Shown: piece after piece, positions 6,501 to 61,100 of the stretch
Layout of the letters: the number at the start of each line of letters is the position of its first letter
How positions within the stretch are numbered: the first letter of the stretch is position 1
Source of the DNA: Ascidiella aspersa
Taxonomy: Eukaryota
Reading direction: 5' to 3'
Length of the DNA: 64,000 bases
Assembly: GCA_963924565.1 (NCBI GenBank)
Contig: OZ004614.1
Span: 9,796,001 to 9,860,000 of the forward strand
The notes under the pieces: generated by a model
Databases searched by the model: none
Seen by the model: only the letters and a program-made list of their open reading frames with translations
What the model was told of the DNA's origin: nothing
Program-made: the position numbers and the translations under genes

Positions 6501-9500
6501 ATCATTGTCGTTTGGCTATCCTTACGATTAGGTAGAGAAATAGCACTTCCAGGCTTTACATCAACTCTTATTCAACAGTTATTTAAGAATCGTAGCCTAC
6601 TGGAGTATCCAAGGATTAGATCTAGGTCAACCAATGTTTATCTAAATATTTTGCGCCTGGGCTAGTTCAGCAATCTTAAGTCATCGACAGCCAATTATTT
6701 TAAGTATATCTTCTGGCAAACCTAAAATTTTCAAGAAAGTGTTTTACAATTTCCAAGATACAATTTTAAGAAAACTGTTCTACGTTTAGAAATTGAAGTG
6801 AATAACGCGATTACCCAAAATGCTTTCAAACAAACAATTATATACAAGTCGATCAATTGATCGAAATAGATTAAGCTAAAGTCACTCGTTTAACTGACTT
6901 CATTCGAGTAAAGTCACTGGTCCAAATGACTCGAGTCAGTTTAGGCATTTTGCCAAGGAGATCAAGGACAAGTAAAGTGAAAGTTTAATTTAGATACATT
7001 TAACGTACAACTGTTCAGGATAGCCGTGGTTTTATACTTTCATAGCACTTTTTTCTGTTTGGGCAGACGAGTCTACGGTATCAGCTCAAACTGCCCCTCC
7101 ACCGACCACAATTCACAAACGCTCCATCGACAAGGCACCAGCAACCACGACAAAGGTAACCCTCGTCCTTAGGCATTTCGAACTCATTTCCAATTTGCCA
7201 GAGGCCAACACTTGGTTGAGTATTGCATGGGTTGTATTCGTTGCCACACTTTAAACAATATTGAGCGCGTCTATCTCTATAAGATCTTGCGAATACGGAC
7301 CAGGATTTTTGCTACGAAGCAGAACGAAAATTTTATCTTAGATGGTAACCTTAAGTAACTTGCTCTGCCCGGTCGATCTCGTGCGCAAATGTGTAATTGC
7401 AATTGTAATTGATGTATCCATGGAGATTAAGGACTGCAATGGCGTCAGGGAATTTTATTTGCCTTTATGTGATTAAACATAACAAAATTTATTACTTTAA
7501 AGGGGTCGTGGTGCACTGGATACACAGAAAGTCTCAAGTTCCCAGATACAATAGCCATTAATTCGAGATGACTGTCATAATCTTAGAGGAGAACATTGAC
7601 CCAAGCCTTCTGGCAGCATAGACCACTATTTAGTAAATATTTTACAGATAGTTTAGGTTTGCAAAAATTATTTTCAAATAGGAAGATGACTCGATGCTAT
7701 ATAAACGGATCAATCCCGGTGTATAATCCATCGTGCTCGGAAAGAAATGTCCACCGGGAAACGCGTTTTAAATTTATACTAGCTGTCTTTAGGTCAATTT
7801 ACGTTGATTGGGATTACGTTGCATGACTCATCTCGGCAATTATTATTGGGTGTCAAACAAATGTTGAGGGACTCGGGACTTGGGCGTTTTGCGGGAATCG
7901 GGACTCGAGTATGACCAATCTGCCGTAATTTTGTGCAATATCTTGCACTTTTTATTTTAAGCCAAGAGGTGCAATGCCAACAATTTCAGTTAGGCCTACG
8001 TTTCTCTTTGATTGCATTCGCGCAAGAGAACCCCAACGTAAACGTGACTGTCGGCATACAATTTTTACAAATTTTACTACAGGTAGTAAAAAAGGGAAAG
8101 AATTGTTCAAGAGAAGACCTAACAAAATTGCGAATATGCGGGATTAGGTGGGCAAAAACTGTTAGTTCTAATAAACATGACGCAATGCGCGAACAAACAA
8201 TATGTTCATATTGCTCGATATAATTATTATAATTGTCTAATCTTATAAAAACTGACCTTTCAAGAGGATATAAATTCACACTATACACAACACGATTTAG
8301 TTACATGAGGCCTTTTGGGCAAAAATTACTTTGCGGGGGGGTGCACTGGATGATTTCATTAGATTTTAGAAGGGCGGCGTAGTTTTTAATCAGATATCAG
8401 TTTTAACAACTACAAACTAAGTCTTGTGAGAGGGATACAGGATCCTGCTCAGAACAAATGCGTAACTTTAACAGGTTGTCTAAGGCGATTTGTGTCTTGT
8501 TTATGCAGACTGCACCTAACCTATCACTCGCGTCATGATTTCCTTCGTTTGGTTCCACGGTTATTTTACATACAAGAAACCGAAGAAAGCAACGTAATTG
8601 ACATTCCCTTAAACAATAGTTTAACATTTACGCCAGATTAATATAATTCTCACTAAAATTGTAGAAGGTTTTGCCAAGTCTATGGCGTAGATAGGTTCAA
8701 AAGGTGCGAAATATAGCTATATTTAGCGGATCAACATTTCCTTACTTTAACCTTTTTGAATTGAAAAATATTTCATTAGTTTGCTCTAATTGGGCATTAA
8801 AAAACTATTTTATTATTGGATGGCAAATATGTTGATACTTTAGACTTTTTATAGCTGTTATTTCCAGGTAAGAATAAAGCCCCGATATCACAAATGTTCA
8901 AATTTCGTTTGACAAAATTGTCTAATTCCGCTCATTTTCGCAGCCTTGCTTTTAGATAACGAAATTCAAAAGATAAAAAGCCAAACTACAATTATAAAAT
9001 GCAGGTAATATCAAAACCCATGCAGAAGTAGGTATCATTTTGAACGTTCGAATAACTCTTCATTCATATTCAACATGATTACTTATGTATGGGCTTTGAT
9101 AATCTTATTACGTCTTACTACAACCTCCAACAATTATTATGCTCCAAAATAAATAGCATTGTTTCATTTCAGGCGATGCTGACCAGACCGATGCACCCGA
9201 CCGTGAAGTTGCTAATCCTCATTTCGGTCGCCTACGTCATGGCCACGGTTCCGGTAATGGTGTGCGTGGTCACCGATTTTGTTGGCGCCACCAGCCTGGG
9301 GGCCACATTGGTCAGCGACATGGTCATGACGGCCGTGTCCAGTCTGGTAGTACTCTACTGCTTCGCCTGTCCAGTTATTTTGATCGCCTACATGCCCGGA
9401 CTCCGCAGCGCCATCGTGCGCTTATTGATGCCTTGCTCGTGCACCTCGACCAAGGTCACCGCCACTTTTATCCGCGGCGCCAGGGTCAGCGAGAGAAGGT

Positions 9501-9538
9501 CGAGCCAACGGAGGCAGGCCAGCCAGCAGAGCGCCTAG
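3325..9538 (+). CDS. Class A GPCR, EDG (S1P/LPA)/cannabinoid-like, 5'-partial; exons 3325-3565, 5477-5621, 6034-6216, 7067-7155, 9173-9538
   Basis: Five GC-richer exons with AG/GT ends join in frame (phases 2|0|1|1|0) for about 340 aa. TM3 WAFRKAFMVAFFLILSGNVSAL resembles LPA1 WLLRQG...ANLLA. TM4 ITWILPFIYSLPAAFGWNC carries the LPxxGWNC signature. Hydrophobic TM5-7 and helix 8 (PGLRSAIVRLLMPC) follow. TM1-2 exons were not found and probably lie upstream of the window. Confidence 0.85.
5477..5621 (+). CDS. GPCR exon: TM4 and Cys-rich ECL2
   Basis: cttcag|ATG AAA AAG AGG ... TCA A|gttagt; encodes MKKRRAYVIISITWILPFIYSLPAAFGWNCIKHCDCMPGYYGGYRCIS. A weaker in-phase donor exists at 5592. Confidence 0.8.
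6034..6216 (+). CDS. GPCR exon: ECL2 end and TM5
   Basis: cctgccgcag|GA ACA ... CTG G|gtaagt; TDAALCSRVWSPMNNVHLLLAAIIWFVELIIIGVNLFYALHKYYRTS. This frame is not in the ORF track. Confidence 0.8.
7067..7155 (+). CDS. GPCR exon: ICL3 (Thr/Pro-rich)
   Basis: ttttctgtttgggcag|AC GAG ... ACA AAG|gtaac; bridges phase 1 to phase 0 exactly as the flanking exons require. Confidence 0.7.
9173..9538 (+). CDS. GPCR last exon: TM6, TM7, helix 8, C-tail
   Basis: tttcatttcag|GCG ATG CTG; two hydrophobic helices, then a Ser/Arg-rich tail and TAG. Confidence 0.85.
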   Translation, partial: AMLTRPMHPTVKLLILISVAYVMATVPVMVCVVTDFVGATSLGATLVSDMVMTAVSSLVVLYCFACPVILIAYMPGLRSAIVRLLMPCSCTSTKVTATFIRGARVSERRSSQRRQASQQSA

Positions 9539-19377: not shown

Positions 19378-22300
19378 CTGAATCCTTAATAAAAACAAAA
19401 CACGTTCAGGAAAGTGGTTGTCGATATGTTCCCAAGTGATTTTTATAGTCCGTTATGCAATCATAACACGGAAAAAAGTAGGTTTATCGTTGACAAAAAT
19501 ATTAATTTCTGGTTTTAACTGCTATAGTGTTGAATTACCTCACTTTTATACTTATTAGCAAATCAAAATCGTAAGCGGAGTAATAACTTATTTTGTCCAA
19601 TATTGGGGATGCAGGTAAGTAAATAGGTTTTTACATACAAACCCAAAATCGACACCCTAAATAAGTTTGGAATCGTTGTATCTAAATCAGCAATCCAGCT
19701 AAAAAATATTTCAAAAAACAAAATTTTGCTGCTTTCTTATTAGTTCGCAAAACAATATAATGGAATTATTGTACTAAAATATTTGTCCTTTAAGAAAACT
19801 GAGCAACTAACACTGTTCTGCGCAACTGGCACTGGTCATTTTTTTCTTATTAGATAAAGCTTTTCATCTACTAACCCACTGTCATTCCAACTTTTCCCTA
19901 CTCACACACAACCTCCTCGTCGTTTAACTGTGGTTTATATTTGGTTTCAACTTTTTTTGCTTTAACTTTTTTTCGCCTTTTTCTTTTTGGTGAACTAGTT
20001 TACGTCAATTAGGCTGAAGGCTGTTCATATAGGGAATGGAGGGCAACCTGTAATCAATTAGTTACAGATTGTGATTTTGTAGAAATCGCTTGATTTAATG
20101 AAGCCCCCAGTCAGTGTAATAGCCAGAAGACTTGCCGTAGGGCGGGCTTTATTTTTCCTTTTGACAAGTGTTAGATTGGTTTCAGCCAGTTTGTACCGGT
20201 TCCTAAAAACTTGTTCTTTAAATTCGTAGGGTTAGTTAACAGGTTGTCAACGGCACCATCACCTTTCTAGGATGGTTTCGGCGAACCTTGGACTTACACT
20301 TATTGCAAATTGGTTATCCTTCATTGTCATAATTGGTGATATAACAAGAAATTGAAACTTCTACTAAATAATCTGGAACTCTGCTTCTTTCCTTTAAAAA
20401 AATTGTTTGCTTTTTTTTTAATTTTTATTTGCCATTATTGTTGATCAGTAAGATTTGCGAGGCGCCACTACAATCTGGTCTTACACATATTTCATGTTAG
20501 AATTTATTTGTTGAATAACTGGATTTAAGCGCCTTTTTTATAGATAGTATTGTGTTGGCATTCTACTTTACGAAGTCGCTCTTTGAGATAAAACAATTTA
20601 ATGTCTGGTAAATGGTATTTTTTTCATTATCCGCTCATTGTTGCTTAATGTTCAATTTGGAAATTGTTAAGTTAAACTTTTACACCAAGTTACGCGCTTG
20701 CTTTGATTGGAGGTATTTTGTTGAGTCAAAATCGGAACGATTGAAAGCATGATAAGCTGCGCGGCTCTTTTTGAAATACACACCCAATTCAATTGGTCCA
20801 ATCATCCAATTTCTTCTCTGTGGGTTAAACTGCTCAAATTCACTTAACTTGTTTGCACCGCTGCTATAGTTTTCAACAGCATTTCAATTGAAAACTCTTT
20901 TCACTATTTATCGAGCGTTTACCTTTCACATATTCGTTAAACTGTTAAATTTCATGGTTATATAAAGATGAAGTAACACGAAGACTGTCTTATCTCTTTC
21001 CGAGCCTTACGTTTAAAACAGTTTCATTTTAATGTGTTTTTAACCTAACATGTTGTATATTGAATTTGAGTGTTTTTGTTATAATATGAACACGAGTTTT
21101 GCAAAGTAAGTTCCACTTTATACCACAAATTTGATATTTGACATATAAATGACCAAGGAATAGATGTTGGTTAATCTTGGCAAAAAGGGCGTAATATTGA
21201 ATATTGAATGATTTGATTCTTATATTGCCACATACCTTATTCATTGTAACACTTATACCAAGGCTGTAGAAACTGTTTGTATGTAGCGTTTTACGCTCTC
21301 GCCCTAACAGTTAACACGGATTATTATCTTCTTAAAAACACGCAATATGTTTGGTGTTTCCCCAACGTTAAGAACAAAGTCAATATACGAATGTTCGCAG
21401 CCGATTAACCTAATAAATTCTAAATTAATAAAAAAAAAAATTCTAAAATAATGGTTCTAACAAACTAGCTAAATCTCATGATTGCCTATTAACCTCGAAT
21501 ATTGTTTTTTAAGTTAAAATAGGATTCGTCTTTGTTACCCTGGATACTTCAAATCCACGTGGATGTCTATTGTCACTGTAAACCTTGGTAAACTAAATTG
21601 ATGAAATAATAATAATATTTTTATTATATTTGTTAATTTTGGGATCTAAGCCTGCTCCAACATTGCTAGTTGTTGATCTATTTTCCAATAGAATTGTATT
21701 TGAATAAGAATCTTAGCAGAATGACGATGTCTTTTTTACAACCTTTGGTTTTGCTTGGTGAACTAAACGAAGGTCTTAAACAACACCAGTCAGTGCCGAT
21801 ATGATGCGTTGGTTTATTGAAACTGCATGAACAGCATGCGAAAAAAAAATGTCTGTGTCAATAAACCATTGGCGACAGGCACCACGTATTCGTGATAATA
21901 AAAGTAAATGTCACGCGAAAAAGTACGTTTTGCGAAATTGGGAATGCACTGCAATAAAACTAATTACGTTTTTTAAGTAGAGTCTCGGATTCAAAAAAGC
22001 GTTGTAAATATTCAAGCGATGTGTTACAAACATCATAAAATTGGAAATCGAACTCCGTTTAGGACTCTTTTAAGTTGGCCTATCCGGCAACATTGTGCTC
22101 AACAATAAGCTGAAACAGCATTCTCCTTCACACACACAAAAATCACAGTGCCTGAAAAGCGCGCAAAATAAAGAAAAATTAAACCAAACGAAAGAAAAAG
22201 AAAGAAAACAAAGAAAGAAAATCAGACAGCAACAGTATATTCAAAGAAAATCCTGCTCTGCTGGTCGAAAGAACGTTGTCCCGCGATTGTTGGCGCATTG

Positions 22301-22664: not shown

Positions 22665-23314
22665 TCACTCTTCCTCTTCCCACCATTCTTCCTCTTCCTC
22701 TCGTACCTCTTGCTGTGGCTCCTCCTGCCTCTGCGGAAGATCGAGTCGTGGAACCTCCTCGGTCGAAGCTGGAGTTTCTTCCTGGATTCGTGGCTGTTCC
22801 TCTTGGGGTGGTTCTTCCACTCGTGGAGGCTCTTCAACAACTGGCGACTCTTCCAATCGTGGAGATTCTTCTTCTATTGGCGACTCTTCTTCTATTGGCG
22901 ACTCTTCCTCTATTGGCGACTCTTCCTCTATTGGCGTCTCTTCCTCTATTGGCGTCTCTTCCTCTATTGGCGACTCTTCCTCTATGGGATACTCTTCCTC
23001 AATTAGTTGCGGCTCTTGTGTTGGCTCTTGTGTTACGACCTCTTGCTCTTGTTCCGGACTTTCTTCCTCTTCTTCGTGTCTAGGCTCCTCAAGATGTCCT
23101 TGCTCCGGGATCCTGTTCTCGGTTTCTCGGTGGACGGACATCTCGACGTTGAGGTCCGTTCTTAGGACATCCTTTTGTTCTGGAGTCGGACGGATGTACT
23201 CCGGCTCTTCTTCTTCAACTTCTTCGCGCTCGATTTGCTGCGAAGTCTCGTCAATGGCTGGGATCGGGAGCCGGATGTGCTTTTCCGTGGCTTCCTTGCC
23301 GTTGGCCGGTGTTT
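22665..23314 (-). CDS. Terminal exon: Glu/Pro-rich tail with (IEEESP)n repeats
   Basis: tcttttccag|AA ACA; long acidic ORF ending EEEEEWWEEEE*. Confidence 0.85.
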
Positions 23315-26300
23315 CTGGAAAAAGACAAAATTTGTTTATGTATTGAAATATTGACGCATAATGGTTGGAGGTTGTAGTAAGATGTAATAAAAACATCAAA
23401 GCCCATACAGAAGTAGGTACCTTTTTGGACGTTTTGAATAACTCTTTATTTAAATGCAAGTTGTTGGGCAAATGTTATTCATCCATCAACTTATCGCAAA
23501 TTATGCCGTCAGAGTTATTTAAAAGCATTAACTGAAATCCATGAAGTTTTCCTCGGGGGTAAAGTGAGGTAAAAGTATAAGAACCGCGCTGATTGGGTTG
23601 AAAAACGTTTGCGTGAATCTTCACTAGCCACACGTTATGGAATACAGTTCACTTAAATTACACATGGGCCACAACGCTTACATTCCACTGTTAGAACGAG
23701 CAACCCGCGTTGACTTAACTGTGTTTACAAGTGTTTTTGTAGGGCTGTCACATCGTTACAGCTCTCTTGTTTATCACCTGGTGTCCCAAGTCAAACAGAA
23801 ATAAAAAGTCCCGACCGCTTTAAGATAGGTTTCGATGCTTATCTGTTTGCGCGCCTACATTTCAAAATCGATAGGTTGAAAACAACAACAGCAGCAGCAG
23901 CACGAAATCGTCTAGAACGTGCCGAGTCAGTGGGATCGCAATTACGGCAAATGTGCAGATAACAGGGCAGGGCGGCACGAGACACGAGCTCTGACGGCAA
24001 TTTTAGCCCCGGCTCTGACGCGGTATGGTTCCAGCAGCCGGCACTAGTAGTAAACAAACACAGGGCAGTCGGGGCGAAAGATAACGACTGACTCGTGAGT
24101 AAGTCGTGTCGGTTTTGCCGACGAAGAACTTGCTCGGTTGTTTCCAGCGCTGCGGTTCATGATCGTCACGAGTCGACCCGCGCGTTTTTGAACCCCAGTG
24201 GTTTTTCGCTAAACTTGTAAACAGCACGTCGCAAAATGAAAGACGCACGTCGCCAAAGAGCAGTGAGCGGTTTGAAGTCTCGTGTTGACTGTTTACGCCT
24301 TTTGCATTGTTTGTATATTTATCTGTTTAAAGTGCGAGCTCGAGAACACTTTTGATGTCGATTTTTTTATGATTTTTTATTTTGAGGAAACTTGATCGTT
24401 TGTTTGAGGAGGTTGTCAAGGTTTAGACGTTGAATGTACAATGTTTGGTGTTTTACAGAAGAGTTTACCATATATTTTGTAAAGTTATGAATATTTTGGT
24501 GCCAAATTTAAGATGCTATCCCCTTGTCTCTTTAGATGGAAACTGAACCATTTATTTTGTAACGTTATAAATGTTTGATGTCATGCAATTTACGTCAGAC
24601 CCTTGTCCTTTGTCAAACAAACACCGCTTATTGTGGAGATTACGACTTAGTTTGGTAAATGTTACCCCTTGTCCTTTGTTATGCAACCTTACTGTTTACC
24701 GTCCAAGGTCACAAACTTCGCATCATCGCCATAAATAAAAGACACACACGTGATGCCGATTGTTGTGTCACGCGATTAAAGGCAGGAGCGTGGGTGCTAG
24801 CGAAAAACGTTCGACAGGTGTTGCAGTAATGAGACGAAAATAAACTCCTCCCCTCAAAGCGACAACCGTATAAGAGAGTTTTGCGCAACTGATACGGGCG
24901 CATGACGCACTCCATGCAAGGGGCGTGCGCAATTCGACGCGCTCCGAGAATTACAGGGCCGCCAAAGACGTCTAATAGCCGAAAACGGTCTGTAGTTGTT
25001 TCTGGCGGCGACGGTCGCCGAATTTTCGGAATATATCTCCGCGATATATGGCGCATCTTTATAAAAGTGAAACACATTGGCGGGAGGTTTTATTAATTCC
25101 TTGTTTCGATTGGTTTTATTTTTACGGGAATTGGTGATAAAACTTTTATTTTTATTTCTTTAGAGATGAAGATAACGCCCCAATTTGCCGCCTTTGTTTG
25201 TCATATAAACTTGGGAAGCCGTCTACCTAACTGTGTCCGTGGTAAGTAGTTTCTCCCTCGCTTGTGATCTCAGTTAACATGCAAAGACCACCAAGACGTG
25301 GCACGACTTTAAGCGTTTTAAGATCGACACAAACCAACCCGTTTGCTAGTTTTGGATTTGACGAAATGCCACAGTCTGCGGTGTGCGGCCCACGCCCGTG
25401 CAAGAGGGCCAAGCCTTTGCTGATCCTCTCGATAATGTTTTGCAAGTGCATTTCTCATCGTCTACAGCACGCCAGTGTGCACGGCTACTTAAAAAAATGC
25501 CAAGTGCTCGCTTGAAAACAAGTGCGTGTCTACCCTTAATTCTACCATGTCTTGAACATCATTGGGACGATTATGGCAATAGATGTTAAGTCGTTAATAG
25601 GTGTCACGCGAAGGGCGTAACCCAATGCAAAAGGATTTGGTGGCCAATTTATGCACTTGTTATGTTGTTGTTGCTGCTGCTGCTGTTGTTTAACATACAA
25701 GCGACATGCTAACTTTTGTGTTCGCGCTGCTTTGACTCTTGGCGGTCTACCCGACTGTTATTATCGCTGGTGGCAATGCCTTGTTGGCTTGATCACGAAA
25801 AAAGTTGTTGTTCCGTTGTCGGACGTGACTAGAATGTTTAGTTGTTATTACATTTTTAATTGATTTATCCCTTGCTAGAGTCATGGAAAATTACATAAAA
25901 ACGCATTAAAGGGATTCCTCAAAAGTCTATGTTCAGTCATTAAATCAAGCAACCAAATTGCAGGAGAATTTTCGACTTGAGAATTTTTAGCAATTTTACC
26001 AACACGTGAAACGCTATGGCAAAGACTTCCGCCAACTACAAACATAATGTAGCTAACCCTTATTGCGTGCTCCATTAAATTCAACTTACCTATGCGAACA
26101 ATAGGCGCTGATGCCTGGAACTGCTTGAAGCAAGTCAGTGCCTTGAAGCCGTAGCTGTCGATCCAGCAGGGGAGGTCTGTGTCGCAACTGCGCTGCGTGT
26201 CGCGTGCCGCTTTCGTGTCGAGCTTCAAGCAGCGCGATACGTTGGCCAGAAAGTTATCGACTTCTGCAACGGAGAAAAGAAAAACCTTTATCAAATTCAA

Positions 26301-29300
26301 TCACAAAAGAGCAAGAGAACTAAGGATATTTACAACATTTCTTCTAAAAACTGTAATAGTCAGAAAACTCTTACTAGTTAAAGATTTATATTCTTTAGAC
26401 TTTGCTGTCTTGGTCAAAGTCAGAAACTTATTAATGACTAACTTAATATTTGCTCCCATTTGAAGTAATTGTCGTCATTTACGTGTAAGGGGTTGAAGAC
26501 TTAATCAAAATACGACTAAAAATACATTAGACTATTTTGACTTACGTTGATCCGCCTTGCAAGCCGCCAAACAGGTTCCGGTGGCCGAACCGACCAGCTC
26601 CATCCAGCAAAACGCGTTGGTGCTGCATCGCGAGTATCCCTGAGCAATGGTTCTCCACGGTTGGCGCGAGCATTCCCAAACGCACTCGAGAACAGTCCTG
26701 GCTCGTCGTCCGATCAGAAGAGATTCTGCAAACGAAAAGGCGATTATTATCACGGATTTTGACTAGTAAGATATGCTCTTTTTTTAAATGTAGTTTATTT
26801 GTGTTATGGGCTTTTTGTCGTTAACTTAGTGTTCATTGCACACCCTAAACACAAGAATAGTGTTGCTGGTTCTTAATTCCATAGGCCCGTAAAATGTAGT
26901 GGATTACTTCTAGTATGAATACAATTCTATGCTAAGCCTGAAGCAGCTTTGGTGAGTAGTCTTACTGAACTCCCCTTGAACTGCAGTTCTTGAATCATCG
27001 ACTCAGTTAGACAAAGAGAAGCATATTGTTTTACCTGGCTGGTAGCATCTGGGTCCGTCTTTGCTGGTGCTATCGAAGCAGCAACCTCGCGACTCGCACA
27101 CTTTGTCGGAGATTGAAGGCCAGCCACAGTCGACACGTTCCCTCGTGGTGGCCACGCAAGATCTCAAGGTCGACTTGTCATTGGTGCTGGCGAGAGAAAC
27201 CGGGAAAAAGGCGCTCCTCAGGTTGACCTGGTTGGATGGCGCGCGAGGAGCGAGAGAAGCGCCTGTGACGAAACAAGAGAATGTTTAGGTTTGACATTAT
27301 TTAACTATTAAGAGTGGTTTTATACTTCTACTAAAAACATATCACACCATGCTTTGTAAATCTATTGTCTATAACTATATTCGGTTTGCGAAATGCTGAT
27401 TGATATGTCGCCTTATCATCAACAACATGCCACACAGTTATTTGTACACCTATTTCACAATAAAAATAACTTTTGTTTGTTTAAATGTGTTTTTATTTTG
27501 TCGCTCTTTTGCCAATACAATGCCTTGAAAATCTAGTTTAAATTCAACAAATCATGTAAGCTACAGTAGCCCGATTGTATGGGAAGCACATGGGAATTTT
27601 GCTTTGTCATTGTTGTTTTGGTTTAAAAGAAACTGAAACACGAACTACACAGTGGATCATTGTTGATTCAAACCGTTGCACTGCAATCGCGCGGGCTTTG
27701 GACGTCTTAATACCTTTTAAAACGCTTTCGGTCGTGTAACTACAAGCCAAAAGCTTCTTTCACTTCGCACCATACTTCCTTTACACCGGGATGACATCTA
27801 CGTTATTATCGCGCTGCATTGTAAGCGGGAGATTAGGTTTAATGTGCAACACAGCTATTTTTAGTCTAGACGCAGCAGTCAAATCGGCACGCAATTAAAA
27901 CGTCTAGACCTGTCTCACAAATGGGAATGCTGTGCTTTAACGGATTTAAAGCCCCTTTTACTGCTCGTAAACAACACATGTATACGGTTATACGTGCACA
28001 CGTGGCTTTAACAGCTTCGCCCAGTAACTCTGTTTATGGAGCCATAAATCAGCGGGCAAAAATAAACCGCCTGATGAATGTGTTGATCATAAATTCCGCC
28101 ATCAGCAAATGGCCACGTACGGTAGAATTGCAATCGCAAGTCGAACAAAGTTCAACGGGGTATCGCAATTCCGAGATTTAAGCGTTGTTTTGTTTTGACA
28201 GTTTACTACAGCAGTTTAAAGGTGGACCGTCGACAACAATACAACACAAGTCGTATGGCACCTTTTATCAGGCCAGTGTATACCATAGTTCAAAAAGTGC
28301 CAGCTCAGCGTTACCAATTATTTATTTTGTCGTTTAACGCTGTGAATCAGTTCTTGGTCACTTTGGCATGGTAAGCTTTATCTACCCCGTTTCAATTTTT
28401 TTCTTCGTGCCATGGCCCACCCATTAACCAGTTCAAATAGCAACCTACCTTCCCTTAAAATCCAGAACAACTTGAACCAACGAAAAATACTATTTACAAC
28501 AAAAGTTATATTTAGGGGACACACAGCTCCATTAAGGAAACGGCACCTGGCCAAAACAACGACTTCAATGGGATTCGTCGTAACGGTAATTTAGCTCGGC
28601 GCGCCGCTTTTGATTGGCCAATTTCCCGCGCGATCGCACCGACTTGCTCAGGCCACGCGATTCCGGTGGGAGAAAGTTGGTCTGCCGATCGTTATGGCGA
28701 GATATTTTCGTTTCGAAATGAAGCGACCGGTATTTATTTTCTGATGTTGCTAAGAGCGAGATTATCGTTACCACTTCATAATTTTGTTTATCAGTTTTAA
28801 TCTAAAAAATGTTTCAGACCATAGGGAAGTCGTATATATTATCGGAGCTGATTTCAAAGTGGTAGTTTCAGTACTCTTCCAATTTCAGGGGTATCTATGC
28901 CGATCCGATGATATTTTGTTTATATCATACATTGTGCCAATAGGAAAATGCTTTCAAGCAGGTCACACTAAGTGCGTATGTTGCAAGCTTGCATCACCAA
29001 CCAATAACCATGTTTTAACTGCGACCAAGGGTTCGGCCGTCAGTCAAAACCAGCACGCACTGGTTGCGTCAAATTTTCGCATGCATTTCACCAGATCGTG
29101 CGGCTTGGGGGTCGCGACCCGAACGCTATAAACACATACACGACAAAAACATGCGGATAGGCCGTTCGTCGCCGTTCTTCGGCGCATTTGTTTTATCAAG
29201 TCAATCGCGTCCAGGCATGCAAAACCGGACGAGAAATACGTCATCAATTAGCGGGCAACTTTGACTTGTGGTTCTTAAAGTGTGGGTATTATCACTAAAG

Positions 29301-31090
29301 GGGTAAACTGATGTTTTTATATGGGGAATTGTAGCATAGAAGATATAGAAGATATCTTTGAGAACTGAAAAGCAGATAAGAAGTACTTAGCTTTAATTGA
29401 CATATGAAAATCAGTTGTTAGATAATTTATTATTCTTGTCTTAATTGATCAGTAATTGTTCATGACTTTATAATGAAGTCACGACTTTATAATCTAATCG
29501 AATTACATTGTGTTCTTCACAAGTGTGAAACGAACCACTTATCTAAAAGATAAAGTGCAAAAAAACAAAGCATGTTCAGACAGAATTGCGATGGCATGCT
29601 ACATCGAATTCGCAAAAGCACACAACACACACAGTTTCAAAGGAGACTCACTCTGCGCGCTTTCTTCAGTATTCGGTTTAAAGCAGCGGATTACGTTTGG
29701 TATCGTTTTGTCAAAGCAGCAGCCGCTCGCCAAGCAGCGCTTGCGTCCGAAATGGACTTTTGAGTTGCACATGACTCGGTTTTCCGGACGTATGCTTGTG
29801 CATTGGATACCTGCTGACAAATTATACAACCTTGAAGAGCTGTATTTTGACTCAGTTTTGGTGCACCCGAGATTGCAATGATAGTACAGTGTTCACGCTT
29901 TAAAATAAATGCCGTCGATTTGAAAGCAATTGTTTTTTAATTTAAGCAAGCCAGAGTTAAAGTGGAAATGTCAAGCTTGAATATACGTAATAAGATCACC
30001 GACAAAGCAGTTAAAGTTGCAGTCAACCTTTTTTCCTTTAACAACTATTGTTTACAGTCGTGCCATCACAATACACTGCTGACTCTGCTGGATTACGTAG
30101 CCAATAAACATTGGTGTAATGTACATTGGATCACGTATAGCTAATAAAGTTGGTCTAATCTTTTGTAACACGTGCGCTAACCCGATTGTAGCACTACCCT
30201 CCCAACAATCAACAGTTAATGTTTACAGTTTTAGCGCTGAGGAACTCTTATCCTATTTGGTTGATAGCCTTTTGTTATCAGTCGTTTAGGTTTTGACTTT
30301 CCCCGATAATTCCTGATCATTACAAGGCGTGCCTGAATGAACGGCGACTAAAACTACAGGAGAAAATACTGTTTTCGAGAAAAAATAATTCCCAAATCTG
30401 TAATTTCCAGGGAAAACTTGGATTACCTTTATTAAACGCCCACAGCTAGCCAGTGTAATAATAACGCTGAAACTATGCAACAACAATGAGCACTGTGACG
30501 TAACACTGCTCCAAGGTTGTCTGTGGAACACGTCCGATTGTTTGTCCACTTACATGTTTACCACTTGAGGATTTGAAAGCTGATCGGTTTATTGTTGTTC
30601 GATTACAGCGAAATTCAAGTGTGATTACGGGGAGAATATCCTTGGCCTAAACGACGCGACATTCCAGAGGAGAATGCCCTGGGCCATGTGTAAATTGGCA
30701 AATCGGCGAAAGATTTTCGTGCAAGTATAAAGGCCTCCGGTTTGGTGAGCGTCAAAAATACGATTTTGCTACTTGTCGCATGTGAACATTTTAACGTCAT
30801 TGTTTGTATTTAACAATCATAGACCGAAAAAAACGGACATTTTATTAAAATATATTTATGTTTAATGCCTCCAAATCATTTTAATATATGTTTATAATTG
30901 AAATTTCGCAATTTGCAAAAACTAAAATATGTTCTTTTACAATTGTTGAGCGTTCCGTTACCGAAATAAATTAATCTCGCAATTGAGCAGGAAATATAAA
31001 ACTGAGTTTGAACTTACCACTCAAGGTTGGGGCTCCCGAGCAAAAAGCAATGCAGATGCTGATGGCGAAATATAGAACGATAGAATTCAT
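22665..31090 (-). CDS. Secreted trefoil (P-type) domain protein, 487 aa; exons 31090-31018, 29810-29652, 27262-27035, 26725-26546, 26263-26090, 23314-22665
   Basis: Six exons with canonical splice sites and all introns phase 1 total 1464 nt, open from ATG to TGA. Signal peptide MNSIVLYFAISICIAFCSGA, two six-Cys trefoil motifs (RxxC...C..xGCCFD...C), two Cys-Trp repeats, acidic tail. Confidence 0.88.
22830..23003 (-). repeat. Coding 18-bp minisatellite, about 9-10 units (IEEE[S/T]P)
   Basis: Plus strand ctcttcctctattggcga repeated in tandem. Confidence 0.9.
26090..26263 (-). CDS. Cys/Trp module B exon
   Basis: ttctccgttgcag|AA GTC ... ATA G|gtaagt; 174 nt, phase 1-1. Confidence 0.85.
26546..26725 (-). 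CDS. Cys/Trp module A exon
   Basis: ttttcgtttgcag|AA TCT ... CAA C|gtaagt; 180 nt, phase 1-1. Confidence 0.85.
27035..27262 (-). CDS. Linker and trefoil domain 2 exon
   Basis: CVATTRERVDCGWPSISDKVCESRGCCFDSTSKDGPRCYQP; this frame is absent from the ORF track. Confidence 0.9.
29652..29810 (-). CDS. Trefoil domain 1 exon
   Basis: CTSIRPENRVMCNSKVHFGRKRCLASGCCFDKTIPNVIRCFKP; NAGNAG acceptor (cagcag), donor gtgagt. Confidence 0.9.
31018..31090 (-). CDS. Signal-peptide exon of trefoil protein
   Basis: ccaagATG AAT TCT ... TTG AGT G|gtaagt; hydrophobic core ending in small residues. Confidence 0.8.
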
Positions 31091-31489
31091 CTTGGAATGC
31101 AGTAGTTGACAGTTTGATTAAAATAATAATAATTCTGAATATGAAAAAAATATGCTTATTAAACATTTGCTTGCTATTTAAAATCCTTTTTATTGTAACT
31201 GTAAAGTATCGCGCACCAGGCACAGACAAACGTAAACGATTTATAAGCTCATGCAGTCCATATTGATTATTCTGCTAAGGAATTTCCGACAATACACGCT
31301 TAAAAGTAACGCAAAAAATAAAAAGTAACAATAAACAACTGCTGTCAATTGCAAATATACCGCGTCACCGTAATCGAAATTCAATAACCAACAGCACTGC
31401 GTAAACGTGGAAAACTACAATCCTGCAGCACAACAAATACTAGTCATAAGCCTTCAACTTAGTTAAGCCGCTCTCAAAGGCTCCGGGCG

Positions 31490-31525
31490 ACTGTGAGCAT
31501 TCGAAGCGGCGGAGCGCTATTTATA
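31490..31525 (-). promoter_or_regulatory. Putative TATA box and initiator of the trefoil gene
   Basis: Minus-strand TATAAATA at 31525-31518 in a GC-rich context; pyrimidine-A (tcAcag) 31 nt downstream at 31494. Confidence 0.55.
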
Positions 31526-34500
31526 CCTCCGCGCTGAACGATCCCAACAATCACGCCTTGTTACGTCACAATCCTACGCAGATCACGCCGCGTCGTTCGA
31601 AACACGCTAACGAGAGCAACCTTTCGCTGCAGGCTGGCGGGACGACTGGCTGGTTGGCCCGGTGTTTTTCGACGGGCGTCATTTAACAAAAGAACCCATC
31701 GCGACATAACATTATATACCGCTGCTGCTGCTTCTGCTGTTTCGTCTGCCAATTACTGCCCACGCTCGCTAGCGACTTGAATTTGACCGGCACATTTCCA
31801 AAGAGAGGCCAATTTACGGCCTCGTAATGGCGCGGACAATAACTTCAAGGGCCTGCTGAGCGCTTTTCACAATTGCTCGGCGGCGAAAAGGACTCCGTTG
31901 CACCCGAACAGGTAATTGGCGCCGGGACAAGGTGCTTTCCATGGCCAGGCTCGAGTAAATTACGGAACGCACAAGAGCGATTGACAAAGTTTTTGTAAAC
32001 ATTTCACTTGCGTCGGTGCTGCAAGAATTTCGCTAATCACCATCACTTTGCTCGAATCTTCTTGAAAGCTGTCGATTTACCGCGCATGACATAATTCCAC
32101 AAGGATTACGGGATGCATGGAAAGTTTCCCAAAATAGCAACAGGCAAATCGTCCGTAAGCCTTGTGTCGCAATCTTGCAAGGCACCCGACTCTTGCACCA
32201 TAGCTAGGCATGGCTCTTTGTTGGCAGCTAATATGCCCAGTCATATTTCGCAACTCTATAATTAGAACTTATGGCCTCTAACTTCATTGTTTCGATAGAA
32301 AACTTTTTTACAGTATATTTAGGCAGATCTCTGCGTCATATCCACGTTTCGCATTGCCGTACTGTATGCTTTTAGCACTTTTGCATAGTTTCGAACGCGA
32401 ATAGAGCAATGCCGTTATTTTAAACGGCGAATAATAATTCATTACACGGAATCAAAAGCAGGCGAAAAAATGCCGACCAGTGCTAAATTGGTTGGCAAAT
32501 GTGTTTGACTGACGCAAGAGAGGAATTCGTTAAAAGTGGCTCATAAAACTACACACCTAGACGCCACGCCGTTAAGACCAGGACGAAAGAGCGGCTGCAC
32601 CCACAACTAAAATAGGCCAGCGCCACATCAAACGTCGACCGGCCAGTTAGCGAGCCAAAGAGGCCTTGCCTACTTCGAAGTTTGCCATTAATCCGCTCGC
32701 TTCGTCGTATCCATCGGAGCTGTGATATTTTTCCGACAACCCGTTTTGACGCGGTTGAAGTGGATTTGTTTTGGCGATCTTGTTTTTGCTAACAGCGCTA
32801 AGGTGACTCGCGGTGATTGTTGGGTCCAACACTTCGTATCGTGTTGCGAAATCGATACCCGATTTTTAAGGGATCAGTACGACTGCCCGCTTTGCTACCG
32901 ACTGACATCATTATTGTGATAAAATGGGCAAAACAGATTAAAAAACCCTTTGAAAATGTTAATGTTTTTTTATTTGGTTTAACGTCAAAATGCTGGGTAC
33001 CTTCGATTTCTTATTAAATATTATTAGCTAAGGAAATGTTCTTTTTTAAAAAAAAAAAAAAAACTGCGTTGGTTAACAAACCATGGTTTAAAAATCACGT
33101 GTTCCCTTTGGAAACGATGTCACCATATATAGTGTTATATCTTCGAATATCGTTACAACCATTTGTCTCGAGTATAGAGTATCGGCTCCGATATTATCGG
33201 ACATATTTTTCGCGCGGTTATAATAGTGTTTTTTGTAAAGCGGGACCTGGAATTGTTTATCCAGTTTTTAATTGAGATTGTTTTTGCTTTTTTGTTGATA
33301 AGAAAAGTTGTTTTTAAACGACAAATGCTGACGATAGAAAACATCCACTGACGCTGTCTCATTCCAGCAAATTCGAAACAACGATGTGATATTTTCAAGA
33401 TTCTAAATGTGTAAGCTAACTCACAGTTATACAAAGACATAATGGTGTATCGTATTTTATACGCAAGAATACTAAATAAGAGCATTTTTCGACTATTCAA
33501 TAAGTGTTGTTGAGCAAGAAAATGTATAAAGGATGCGGGTTTTAGCGAATTAAGTGATATTCGATCTCACAAACGTTACGTAAGCCCTGTAAATTAAGGG
33601 GAAAGTTGTCCAGTGAAACCAGGAAATTACATTGACAACATCCTCGTGATATTAGTCACAAAAAAGAGGATTTTATTGCTCAATACATTTCGCGACTATG
33701 TATAGATTTGGTTGTTATATTTATCAATGCATCATGTTGGCAGATGTTTGATGCCGAAAATACGTTAAGCCTCGCGTTAATCTCAACAAAAAAGTATTTC
33801 GAGCGAAAACAAATTGCACGACAGCATATTAGCGCCGGGTAAATGTTTATTTTATCGAGAAAATATTATATTTACACCGCCCGGCTTATAAGGCCGTTAC
33901 AACAAAGCATCTGATCGCGTGTTTTGCCACACTGTCCAGTCATAATAGCCGAAATCCCCACTGTGGTGGTGCACTTTGGGCAAACACCCGATCGCCAACA
34001 TTCCGTTCCGACCGGCAATGGTTCAAACGAGCAAAAACCACGCATTGACGTCATTATGACGTAAAAATCACATTCCTAATGCGATAATAATTCGCCTTAC
34101 GTCGAAAAAAGCCGGGTCGACTATTACGCCTAAAAAGACAGTTAGTTTTTTTATTCAAATTGCGTTTCGAATAATCACGACGAAACCCGTTTTGCAATGA
34201 AATCAACCTTGGCGGTTATTGCCGGTCATTTCCTCGAACGCACTTTGGTCTTCGGCCTTGCTGAAATTAACAGGCTCGTAACACGTCTTGACCTTCGTTC
34301 GTTTCTTCAATTGTTTTGTGACGCGCAAAAAGAACATTTGTGACGCCGAATTTTGCGTAGTTTAGAATTCGGGAATAAAAAAAACGGAAAATTTACTGAG
34401 AGACTTCCGCATTTTTTATAGCTTTTTTAAAGCGGCGCGTATATCCCGAAAAATGACATTTTGGATTTAAGCGATTGCCTGTACACTGCGTGGCGTACAA

Positions 34501-35505
34501 GCTTTCGGTTTTTAAGCAAATTGTCAAAATAAAGGTCGATCTAAGTCCGACTCTGTGCCATACGTCAACTGCCAATCTTCCCGATCTTCGCGTGACGTCA
34601 TTCGTGACGTAAGTGTTCAGTTAAGACGGACACCTCGGTGTCGAATGTCGTGCCACCGGTGCCGCATCTCGACTTTTGCCGAAATCAAATCGCTTTAAAA
34701 GCTTTTGAAATAATCGGCTCGGTGAAAGTACATGATCGAATTAAAACGATTTTGCGATTAGATCTCGGATATGAGCGACATAGAATACTTGTTTTGGTTA
34801 TGCTGCAAAAAATATAACCGTGCTCTGCAATAGTAAGGCAATATATCACTGAAATGAAGTCTTGCTTAAAAGGTTATCTAAATTTTTTTTATATTTTACC
34901 TTTATGTTTTAACTTAATTGTTTTGTTCCATTCGATTTTCAAGTGTCAGTTTATGCAGCATATAGTGCAAATCGATGTAACATCTTAGTTTACTTAACAG
35001 TTAATTGACAGGCAATTTGATAACCGACACAAAATCTTGCAAATAGCAATATTCCTTATAAGCAATACTATTTCGACGAAAATAACAAAAAAGCTACGGG
35101 TATATTTTAACCAATTAACCTCGTGATTCCCGCCCGAAATAGACAAGCTCTTCCATTCGTTGTCGTAAATTGAGCTATTACGATTATATTATCGTTATTA
35201 CACTAATATGGAACGGTCGGCAAAACCTCATTCGCGGAATTTATCAAGAAGCGATCAAACCATTAAAGCGCCAAATTCGGCCGCGTCCATAAGGACAACG
35301 CAGCCGGTGCCAAGGCGCGCGATTTAAGTTGTTTAGGGAAACTCCTGTTTTAACAAGGCCCCGGGGCTCTGGCCTTGATTCAAGTATGGGCTACGCACTA
35401 AAACAAAAGGGGAAACGCAGTCAGGGCTAAAAAAACTTTGAAAAGATGTTTTTGATGCTATGCGCAAAATCGTGGTATGTACGAAATAACAAAACATATG
35501 ATGAT

Positions 35506-35680
35506 TATTTTGGAGCATATTGGTTGAAGGTTGTAGTAGGACGTAATAAAAATATCAAAGCCCATACAGAAGTAGGTATCATTTTGAACGTTGAAAAAGA
35601 GACGATGTTGAAAATTAATAAAGAGTTATTCGAAACGTTCAAAATGATACCTATACTCTGTATGGGCTTTGATATTTTTA
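35506..35680. repeat. Dispersed repeat with internal inverted repeat; other copies about 9008-9151 and 23349-23455
   Basis: Shared ggttgtagta.ga.gtaataa.aa.atcaaagcccatacagaagtaggta.c.tttt. Confidence 0.85.
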
Positions 35681-58154: not shown

Positions 58155-61100
58155 CTAGCGGGCGACAAATGAAAAAATAAGCGCCGTTAGACGTCGCACG
58201 AGAGCGGTTAGGTGAATCTTAAGACGGTGCGACATTGACATGGGCGAACTTGGCGCACCGAGACTTTTTGAGGGCAATATCTCCGTTGTGCTGCTAAATA
58301 AGTCCCTGAATAGGCTTTAGCAATCCAGCAAACATGCTTTTAGCGAAAAATATTAATATTCATGCCAATACAAGGAATGTATAAAATGTCAGCTTATTAG
58401 CGGCACAACTTTCGGAGATATTGCCCCAAAAAAATCTCCGCGCGCCAAGTTCGCCCAGGTATGATATTGCTGGGTAGAGATGCCGAAAATATCGGATCGG
58501 AGCCCGATGCCAAGTGTGGTAGTATCGGAACACGCCCGATACTAGGCTGGCATTAAGGCCGATACCAAATTAAAATATAATTATGGGTCATGATTGTGGG
58601 GTTTAACACAGTAAAACGTAAATTTATCAATAAATAGTCGGCAAAAAGTCTGGGTAACTTAACTTCTTAGATCTAAAGCAAAGTTTGGCCTAAAAACTGG
58701 AAAAAATAACCAAAGAGTTAAATTTTATATATTTTGTTTGTTTGAACATAATTAATAATGACGTCATTTGATATTGAATCGGATCGCGATAATTTTTGTC
58801 CACAATATCGGGTATCGGAGTAAAATGTAAAGTATCAGACATCTCTATAGGTAAAGTTGCGAGTTCCAATCTCACCAGGCTATTCTTTTGGACAAAGTAC
58901 CTTACCGCCAGTTGACGTCGGAGTGTAGGTGTCGGGTTTAACAACACTTTGCGGATTCGTTGCAAGATTTCTTACCGTCATTAGTGCAATGTAGTGCTTT
59001 ATACCTGTTTTTGGTCGGCATACGCAACTATATTTGATGATACATCAACCAAGTTCAGTAACTCGAAAAACTAGGAATGTCCGATAATAACATACGCGAT
59101 ACCAAGTGTTATTTTATTGCTAATCGTTCGATAGTCGGGTGGTATCGGCACAGATTGCAAACAAATTGGTCCATTAGAGTCATGTTTTGGGATCCAACGT
59201 ATAGTTCTGTATGTAAAAACGTAGGTTTCTGAGAAAATTGTACAATAAAGTCAAATTTTGGCGCAAGATACTGAAAACCATTACAATTGCACTTTGTACA
59301 TTTGATCAATTTTGTTTGCCTACAGCAGTGGTTCTCAACTGGGGTGCCGCGGCATGCTTGGGTGCCATTTTTAATGCTTAAGGGTCCAAAAGATATCTGA
59401 GACCTTTTAGAATCTAATTGTTGCTAACTTTTTTGTAAAGATTAGGGTAGAAAAAATCCAATTATAACTTCCTGCGTTGTGTAGAGCTAATGTGTTCTGC
59501 GCAAGTTCCGGTTATTGTTACATTAAGAGAATTACCTACGAAAAAATCTTGTAGAGCAGGGGTGCTGAAATCTATTTGTTATTTCTGAGGGGTGCCGCCA
59601 GCCATAAAAGGTTGAGAAACACTGGCCTATAGTTATGACGTCATTTAGTGTCAACTCGGATTGCGATACTTTTCGCACAAAACATCACGTACCAGACTCG
59701 GAAAAAAGACTATCAAGTTAAAACAACTTAAACAACGACGACTTACCAGCCTGTGATCCCATTCCCGGTTCGACTGGGTGTCGCAGTGCACCAAGGTAAT
59801 AGCGCCACGCTGGGTCGTCACACACTGGTCGTACTGCGCCAGCTGGTTGGCTTCACTCAGTCGGAAGAGCTGGTTGCCGCCCATTCGGTGACAGTAGCCG
59901 ATTTCTAGCGCCCCGTCGCCGTTCTTGTGTCCCATACTGTCCAGGCACTGTGGCTGCTTCGAATCGACCGTACGGACCTGTAGATAAAGGATTTGTGTAA
60001 AATTTAAGGGTGCCGGTTATAACGGTTCGAAGCCTATACTACACGCCAAGTGTATACTTGTCAGTGTGGTAAACAAGTCATTTTGAAATGACTTGTTTAC
60101 ACCCAGTCGAGTCATTTGTAAGTCCAAGTCAAGACATTTTATTAAAACAAGCCTAACGAACACTACATTTCAACCTAAGTCATTTGTGCAAAATACTCAA
60201 GTTAAATCAAGTCATTTGTTTAAAAGACTTAAGGTCAAGTCTAAGTCATTACAACACTGGTACCGCTACTTGTCCGATAGTAAATTAATCTATTTATTTT
60301 CAGCCTCGATTGCGATCAAACTTAAGCCTTAAGTAGTGCCATAGAGTCCTTAATTTCTCATTCGACGTTTTTGAGAAATATCCAAACAAAACAAAATAGT
60401 ATAAATGTTATGGTGAACACAGTATCAATCGTAAAATAAAAGTTTTACAAAGGCACTTTCGAAACACATAACTTAAGCCGAACATAAAATAAACCCAAGG
60501 ACTTTGGAAAAACCAAAAGGATTTTGTGCAAATTAATTAAAAATACAATCAAGGGTGTTTAAAGATTTAAAGATATTGTGGCAACCTTATAAAACACTGT
60601 CAGGTTCACCTTACATGGGTGTTAAATATAGGTGGTGATATTAAGGTGGTTATTTTGCTTTTCAAGATACTATATCGACGTTGACTCGGAAACATGCAAT
60701 AGAGTCGCGAACGTGCGGAGTACCACGTGACGTGACGTGACCTGACGTTGCTTGACGTCACCGGAAACGGTCACGTGACCAACTTTTCCGGCCAGTACGC
60801 GCACGTTTCGGACACGGGTTGGGAGCTGCTTAGTTATGGGAGTGTTTCCGTTTCACAAGTCACTGACCAGTTCAAACGGTCATTCCGGAAAATATCAAAC
60901 TCGCTTTTCTGTGTGATTTTTCCACATTGTATGAATTTTTTGAAGGCCTCTTTTAAAAGCTTCTGGATTTTTTACATCTTCAGTGAACATTGCCGAAAAC
61001 GGTAGCTTTTAACTTTTTAGTTTCGCAGGGCAAGTTTGGCTCCATAGTTGAGGTATACAAAAAACGCGCAGTTGTATGCTTTTATTTGGCTTTGATGTCA

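Follow-up and report, generated by a model that had tools for sequence, protein, structure and literature searches.

A trefoil mosaic gene of Ascidiella aspersa and a candidate four-helix cysteine domain

The trefoil factors TFF1–3 are built from true P-type trefoil domains, and the double trefoil of TFF2 is closed by an extra disulfide. Saposins, small helical domains of about 80 amino acids (aa), carry nested disulfides 1–6, 2–5 and 3–4. The gene examined here combines trefoils with a different helical module and lies in a 64,000-nucleotide (nt) stretch of the ascidian Ascidiella aspersa (assembly GCA_963924565.1, contig OZ004614.1, positions 9,796,001 to 9,860,000), referred to as the window, whose coordinates are used throughout. 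An earlier note on this DNA, made from the sequence alone, had read the locus as a modular secreted protein with two trefoils, an RRAR motif, two Cys modules of no known type and a polyanionic tail. Ascidians have a described trefoil protein with a signal peptide, Ciona Epi-1, which is reported as a protein of 80.8 kDa, located in the cytosol, whose exon 12 encodes a trefoil (10.1101/2024.09.30.615758). In the account of TFF3 in PMC7221086, the sugar is contacted by Asp20 and Trp47 only, and the W47A variant is inactive. Saposin-like proteins are described as occurring in several copies per precursor and as acting on membranes (PMC11896702).

Gene structure, transcripts and orthologs

Splice-site testing and translation bear out the earlier gene model. 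The coding region (22665..31090, minus strand) consists of six exons that join into one uninterrupted frame of 487 aa, each of the five introns is GT-AG and in phase 1, and the predicted product is about 55 kDa. Exon 1 (31018..31090) holds the ATG and a probable signal peptide (aa 1–24; Kyte-Doolittle 1.9 over aa 4–22); the six best Kyte-Doolittle windows of the chain are all N-terminal, making this its most hydrophobic stretch, and the protein is likely secreted. Exon 2 (29652..29810), a cassette exon, encodes trefoil 1 (C28–C67), and exon 3 (27035..27262) a linker and trefoil 2 (C113–C150). Exon 4 (26546..26725) encodes module A, with six Cys, and exon 5 (26090..26263) module B, a second copy of the domain that has four Cys and lacks the outer pair. 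The coding part of exon 6 (22665..23314) supplies a Glu/Pro-rich tail and ends at the stop codon (22665–22667). All of these features are on the minus strand. While the protein shares with Epi-1 an ascidian origin, a signal peptide and trefoil domains, the described size and exon layout of Epi-1 set it apart from a 55 kDa product of six coding exons, and the window gene is therefore another gene; LOC100178289 is the closest Ciona protein that the searches found.

The gene is real and spliced. Four public runs (X1–X4) were compared over 25950–31350; the library type of X3 is not on record, and X4, from about 6% of which 13 reads mapped, is the only run recorded as RNA. The joints between exons 1 and 2, 1 and 3, 3 and 4, and 4 and 5 were found at the predicted sites, and the joint between exons 2 and 3 was seen in none of the four runs over this interval. 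In X3 contigs, exons 3–4 and 4–5 are joined at depth 343.9 versus about 12 in the introns, and X1 and X2 cover the interval evenly with none of these joints. The exon 1–3 joint, which skips trefoil 1, reaches depth 401.4 in X3 and two reads in X4, versus 21.4 and zero reads for the exon 1–2 joint; contig depth measures expression level poorly, and the ratio of the two joints is indicative only. The exon 2 acceptor is purine-rich, unlike the other four. Exon 2 is apparently mostly skipped, and the 434-aa form without trefoil 1 is better supported as a transcript than the 487-aa form. Linkage of exon 5 to exon 6 is suggested by homology: in the orthologs, the tail comes after module B and has a short motif in common with exon 6.

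Full-length orthologs, their parts arranged as in the window protein, were identified in Ciona intestinalis (LOC100178289, XP_078494711.1; 372 aa, with an earlier record, XP_002128880.1, "integumentary mucin A.1-like"), Clavelina lepadiformis (XP_076822893.1) and Styela clava (XP_039265603.2), with a Ciona savignyi fragment (H2ZCM1) as a fourth. Each of the full-length proteins has a signal peptide, two trefoils, module A with six Cys, module B with four, and a tail with a conserved motif. Sequence comparison places the gene in four ascidian genera and as old within the group. It is no one-off: the orthologs in three other genera had been annotated and named automatically. The view that no characterised protein matches it over its full length has held, since these records carry automatic names only and literature searches on the ortholog accessions, supplements being outside the search, found no paper. 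The orthologs differ from the window protein in their shorter tails, the absence of RRAR and the presence of the lectin Trp in trefoil 2.

Several smaller observations attach to the same gene. A TATA-like box (31519..31526, minus strand), read from the sequence as a candidate promoter, lies about 430 nt upstream of the ATG, and this distance, together with an AG (31091–31093) immediately 5′ of the ATG, suggests an intron in the 5′ untranslated region or a trans-splice acceptor. The first AATAAA (21813–21818) occurs 846 nt past the stop codon. A 50-bp deletion allele in intron 2 (28400–28449) is present in X2 and X3. The intron between exons 4 and 5 holds a high-copy element of about 100 bp (about 26389–26490), with depths of 2,205 and 5,850 versus 55–85 alongside (X1 and X2) and many loose ends.

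The cysteine module and its spiralian relatives

The main value of the locus lies in the module encoded by exons 4 and 5, a small, well-predicted, disulfide-stapled domain without a family model that could be described as a domain family of its own. Module A spans about 46 aa with the spacing C-x3-C-x14-C-x5-CW-x10-C-x3-C, and modules A and B have C-x14-C-x5-CW-x10-C in common. The AlphaFold2 (AF2) model of module A, with a predicted local distance difference test score of 91, places helices at residues 6–19, 23–33, 37–43 and 46–58, and the module is predicted to form a compact four-helix domain. In the Pfam search, exons 4, 5 and 6 gave nothing above cut-off; searches of Pfam, NCBIfam and the PDB returned no match for the module, and structure comparison gave no clear fold match, in agreement with the earlier description of Cys modules of no known type. 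Exons 4 and 5 are single-copy in a genome search. Both modules are conserved to the same degree as trefoil 2 (44–58% non-Cys identity among the window protein, Ciona and Clavelina), about half of the module columns are hydrophobic, with Lys enriched in several, and module A displays conserved surface Trp residues. Cys1 and Cys6 are lost jointly in all five tunicate module-B sequences counted and in that of the window, which supports a 1–6 pairing; from this joint loss and the helix layout we infer nested disulfides 1–6, 2–5 and 3–4.

Relatives of the module were retrieved with a HMMER profile of exons 4 and 5 in an exhaustive search, which returned 15 matches at E ≤ 0.001; 13 contained the module and two were dropped. 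Uncharacterised proteins carry it in tandem, with nine copies in Lineus longissimus (XP_064627860.1), seven in Owenia fusiformis (CAH1800560.1), and nine and 13 in two proteins of Lingula anatina (XP_013408573.1 and XP_013408580.1, respectively). A shuffle control indicated that the homology between window and spiralian modules exceeds what Cys spacing explains. Judged by sequence, modules A and B are homologous to the spiralian repeat unit, and the module would constitute an uncatalogued small disulfide-rich helical domain common to tunicates and three spiralian phyla. While the same six-Cys module is shared, the spiralian proteins, in which it follows a hydrophobic N-terminus, differ in having no trefoil and no acidic tail, more cationic modules (mean charge +5.1 in Lineus, +3.9 in Owenia and +2.1 in Lingula) and acidic spacers (−4.0, −3.8 and −4.5). 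Two module homologues look like gene calls that run through an exon holding one module, with Gly-Lys or Gly-Glu as the terminal residues. Such ends fit a phase-1 donor and hint at a 1-1 exon for the module outside this gene as well.

These arrays recall the saposin-like proteins (prosaposin, NK-lysin and amoebapore) in their small helical bundles, amphipathic helices and multicopy precursors, and the nested pattern of six Cys proposed for the module adds to the likeness. The difference is that the module has about 46 aa, has C-x3-C ends and gives no Pfam SapB match. None of the 15 modules matched any saposin family in Pfam at E up to 1, and no saposin appeared among the listed fold matches. 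The much smaller size of the domain and the failure of saposin profiles to match it make the resemblance a working likeness rather than membership. A bolder proposal, which we regard as doubtful, would make the module an undescribed family of miniature saposin-like domains of ancient bilaterian origin. Each domain would have 46 residues, four helices and three nested disulfides and would bind or disrupt membranes; ribbon worms, annelids and brachiopods would secrete them as multicopy arrays, and in tunicates shuffling would have joined two copies to a trefoil glycan anchor, yielding a mucus-tethered trap for lipids or microbes. If the module does bind membranes, it would represent a new marine defence or mucus scaffold. 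As a separate observation, the genome contains a prosaposin-like gene (contig C7:13500002-13538216) with nine SapB_1 matches versus the four described for the vertebrate protein (PMC11896702).

The spacers and copy numbers bear on two further explanations. In one, the protein would be the precursor of membrane-active defence peptides, with non-furin proteases freeing the modules to kill microbes and the acidic tail or spacers serving as a neutralising pro-piece. RxxR is found in none of the 36 spacers examined, dibasic pairs occur in one of the 22 spacers of three named spiralian proteins, and tunicate modules A and B adjoin without a spacer; the low module charge in this species, and a strong conservation in single copy that is unlike fast-evolving defence peptides, also speak against a precursor of this kind, which we consider unlikely. 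The other explanation would make the protein a secreted signalling ligand or a gamete-recognition protein with the helical module as its receptor-binding unit. Small disulfide-stapled helical domains often serve as ligands, and the single copy and the surface Trp residues of module A would suit such a role; the 7–13-copy arrays of the relatives and the long repetitive tail are better suited to avidity or bulk, and no expression data point to gonad or nerve, leaving a ligand scarcely probable.

Trefoils, the RRAR motif and possible function

Both trefoils are genuine, as the earlier note had recognised, each with six Cys and a PF00088 score above the gathering threshold (37.1 and 47.4 bits versus 21; E = 2.9e-9 and 1.7e-12). 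Trefoil 2, like TFF1–3 a true P-type domain, aligned to TFF3 at E = 3e-10 with D122 at the place of Asp20 and R149 at that of Trp47, and trefoil 1 is degenerate, its two lectin positions being occupied by Met and Arg, so that neither TFF3 residue is kept. The Asn or Asp before Cys2 is therefore present in one of the two trefoils, and the Trp before Cys6 in neither, Arg standing in both. TFF-type glycan binding in this species, which the earlier note had implied, is not supported, given the loss of this essential Trp. Since trefoil 2 retains the lectin Trp in all three orthologs, its glycan site is probably ancestral and has been lost here. At least 54 trefoil matches were found in the genome, many of them clustered (contigs C1–C9), and seven of 18 scored trefoils keep both lectin residues. 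The phase 1-1 arrangement that had been read as a signature of exon shuffling was confirmed and fits such an origin, but it is the norm for trefoil exons in this genome: among 30 loci examined, a rough splice-site caller, which got this gene's own exon 3 wrong, assigned it to 11 of the 18 trefoil exons that could be scored. Trefoil mosaics are many in ascidians, and as one of them the protein is ordinary; less so is a trefoil exon that is apparently being lost through skipping while its sequence decays.

An RRAR motif does lie between the trefoil pair and the remainder (aa 160–163; 26697..26708, minus strand). Furin cleavage there had been proposed to release a TFF2-like divalent lectin from a cation-binding acidic half. 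The motif fits the minimal R-x-x-R, sits between trefoil 2 and module A, and occupies a place where Ciona and Clavelina keep basic residues. None of the three orthologs has RxxR at this place, however, the R-x-K/R-R consensus is absent from all four proteins, and RxxR arose in 87% of 20,000 shuffles of aa 21–271 (p = 0.87; RRxR in 14%). In the AF2 model, RRAR forms the first turn of helix 1. The linker from trefoil 2 to module A has 17 residues in all four proteins and contains a conserved hydrophobic triplet; RxxR occurs in just one of them. A structural link is thereby more likely than a cut site. On these grounds, processing by furin is not supported. Nor is the trefoil pair TFF2-like: its linker of 45 aa (24–47 in the orthologs) compares with about 11 in pig TFF2, the mature chain offers no extra Cys on either side of the pair for a closing disulfide, the trefoils sit inside a mosaic protein, and trefoil 1 is both degenerate and apparently mostly skipped. 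With the lectin Trp also missing, cleavage into a divalent lectin and an acidic half is very improbable.

The tail is as polyanionic as had been described, with 77 Glu and 4 Asp in 216 aa, but a long polyanion is not supported as a core feature. In the ortholog comparison it measures 225 aa and is 36% acidic, versus 112, 116 and 82 aa with 29, 31 and 17% acidic residues in the orthologs, the lowest value being that of Styela. An 18-nt tandem repeat detected with Tandem Repeats Finder (22813..23004, minus strand; 9–10 copies, encoding Glu-rich hexapeptide units) explains part of the growth. The very long acidic tail is a lineage-specific expansion, and its short conserved motif (23115..23165, minus strand) shares 11 of 17 residues with Ciona.

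Taken together with the module, these features lead us to a tentative preference for a secreted protein of a single-copy conserved gene that acts uncut in the mucus or tunic surface layer, where its helical modules would bind lipid or microbial surfaces. The signal peptide would export the protein; trefoil 2 would ancestrally have tethered it to matrix glycans through a site that Clavelina and Styela still have intact and that this species has probably lost; and the hydrophobic, often Lys-rich modules might grip a hydrophobic or anionic surface in a saposin-like manner. The disordered acidic tail may be a variable hydrated spacer that shields the cationic part or binds cations, and trefoil 1 would be dispensable in this lineage. 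The lipid or microbial-surface part is suggested by the resemblance of the hydrophobic Lys-rich columns, and of cationic modules with anionic spacers, to saposin-like precursors. Weighing against it, modules A and B are near neutral in this species, the full-length Ciona structure model is poor, the lectin Trp is gone from both trefoils here, and the cytosolic location described for Epi-1 means that secretion is not to be taken for granted.

Some of these points also fit a structural matrix cross-linker or an Epi-1-like intracellular assembly factor, in which modules and trefoils would be protein–protein units organising tunic or mucus with no binding of lipids or microbes. Near-neutral modules and the lost lectin residue would be expected of it, as would a single-copy gene conserved in ascidians in which, among 40 of 90 variant rows, all three exonic differences are synonymous; the described Epi-1 offers a precedent (10.1101/2024.09.30.615758). 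Opposed to it are the spiralian relatives, which have no trefoil and consist of cationic amphipathic units arrayed between acidic spacers, and the lack of any known partner, and we consider a structural role possible rather than probable. The single copy and the Ciona ortholog make a knockout feasible.

Elsewhere in the window and genome

Three other features of the window were noted. An exon with a ricin-type lectin domain (59654–60016, minus strand; PF00652, E = 4e-11) is presumably part of a polypeptide GalNAc-transferase-type gene. A hydrophobic frame at 9056–9535 (plus strand) resembles the last helices of a seven-transmembrane receptor, with an Sre match below cut-off (E = 0.0016). Near-identical short translations at about 9060–9140, 23360–23445 and 35500–35600 mark a dispersed repeat. 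Outside the window, contig C8 contains between 0.93 and 1.62 Mb four seemingly identical stretches with equal scores, two of which were compared and found identical, consistent with a repeat or a segmental duplication.

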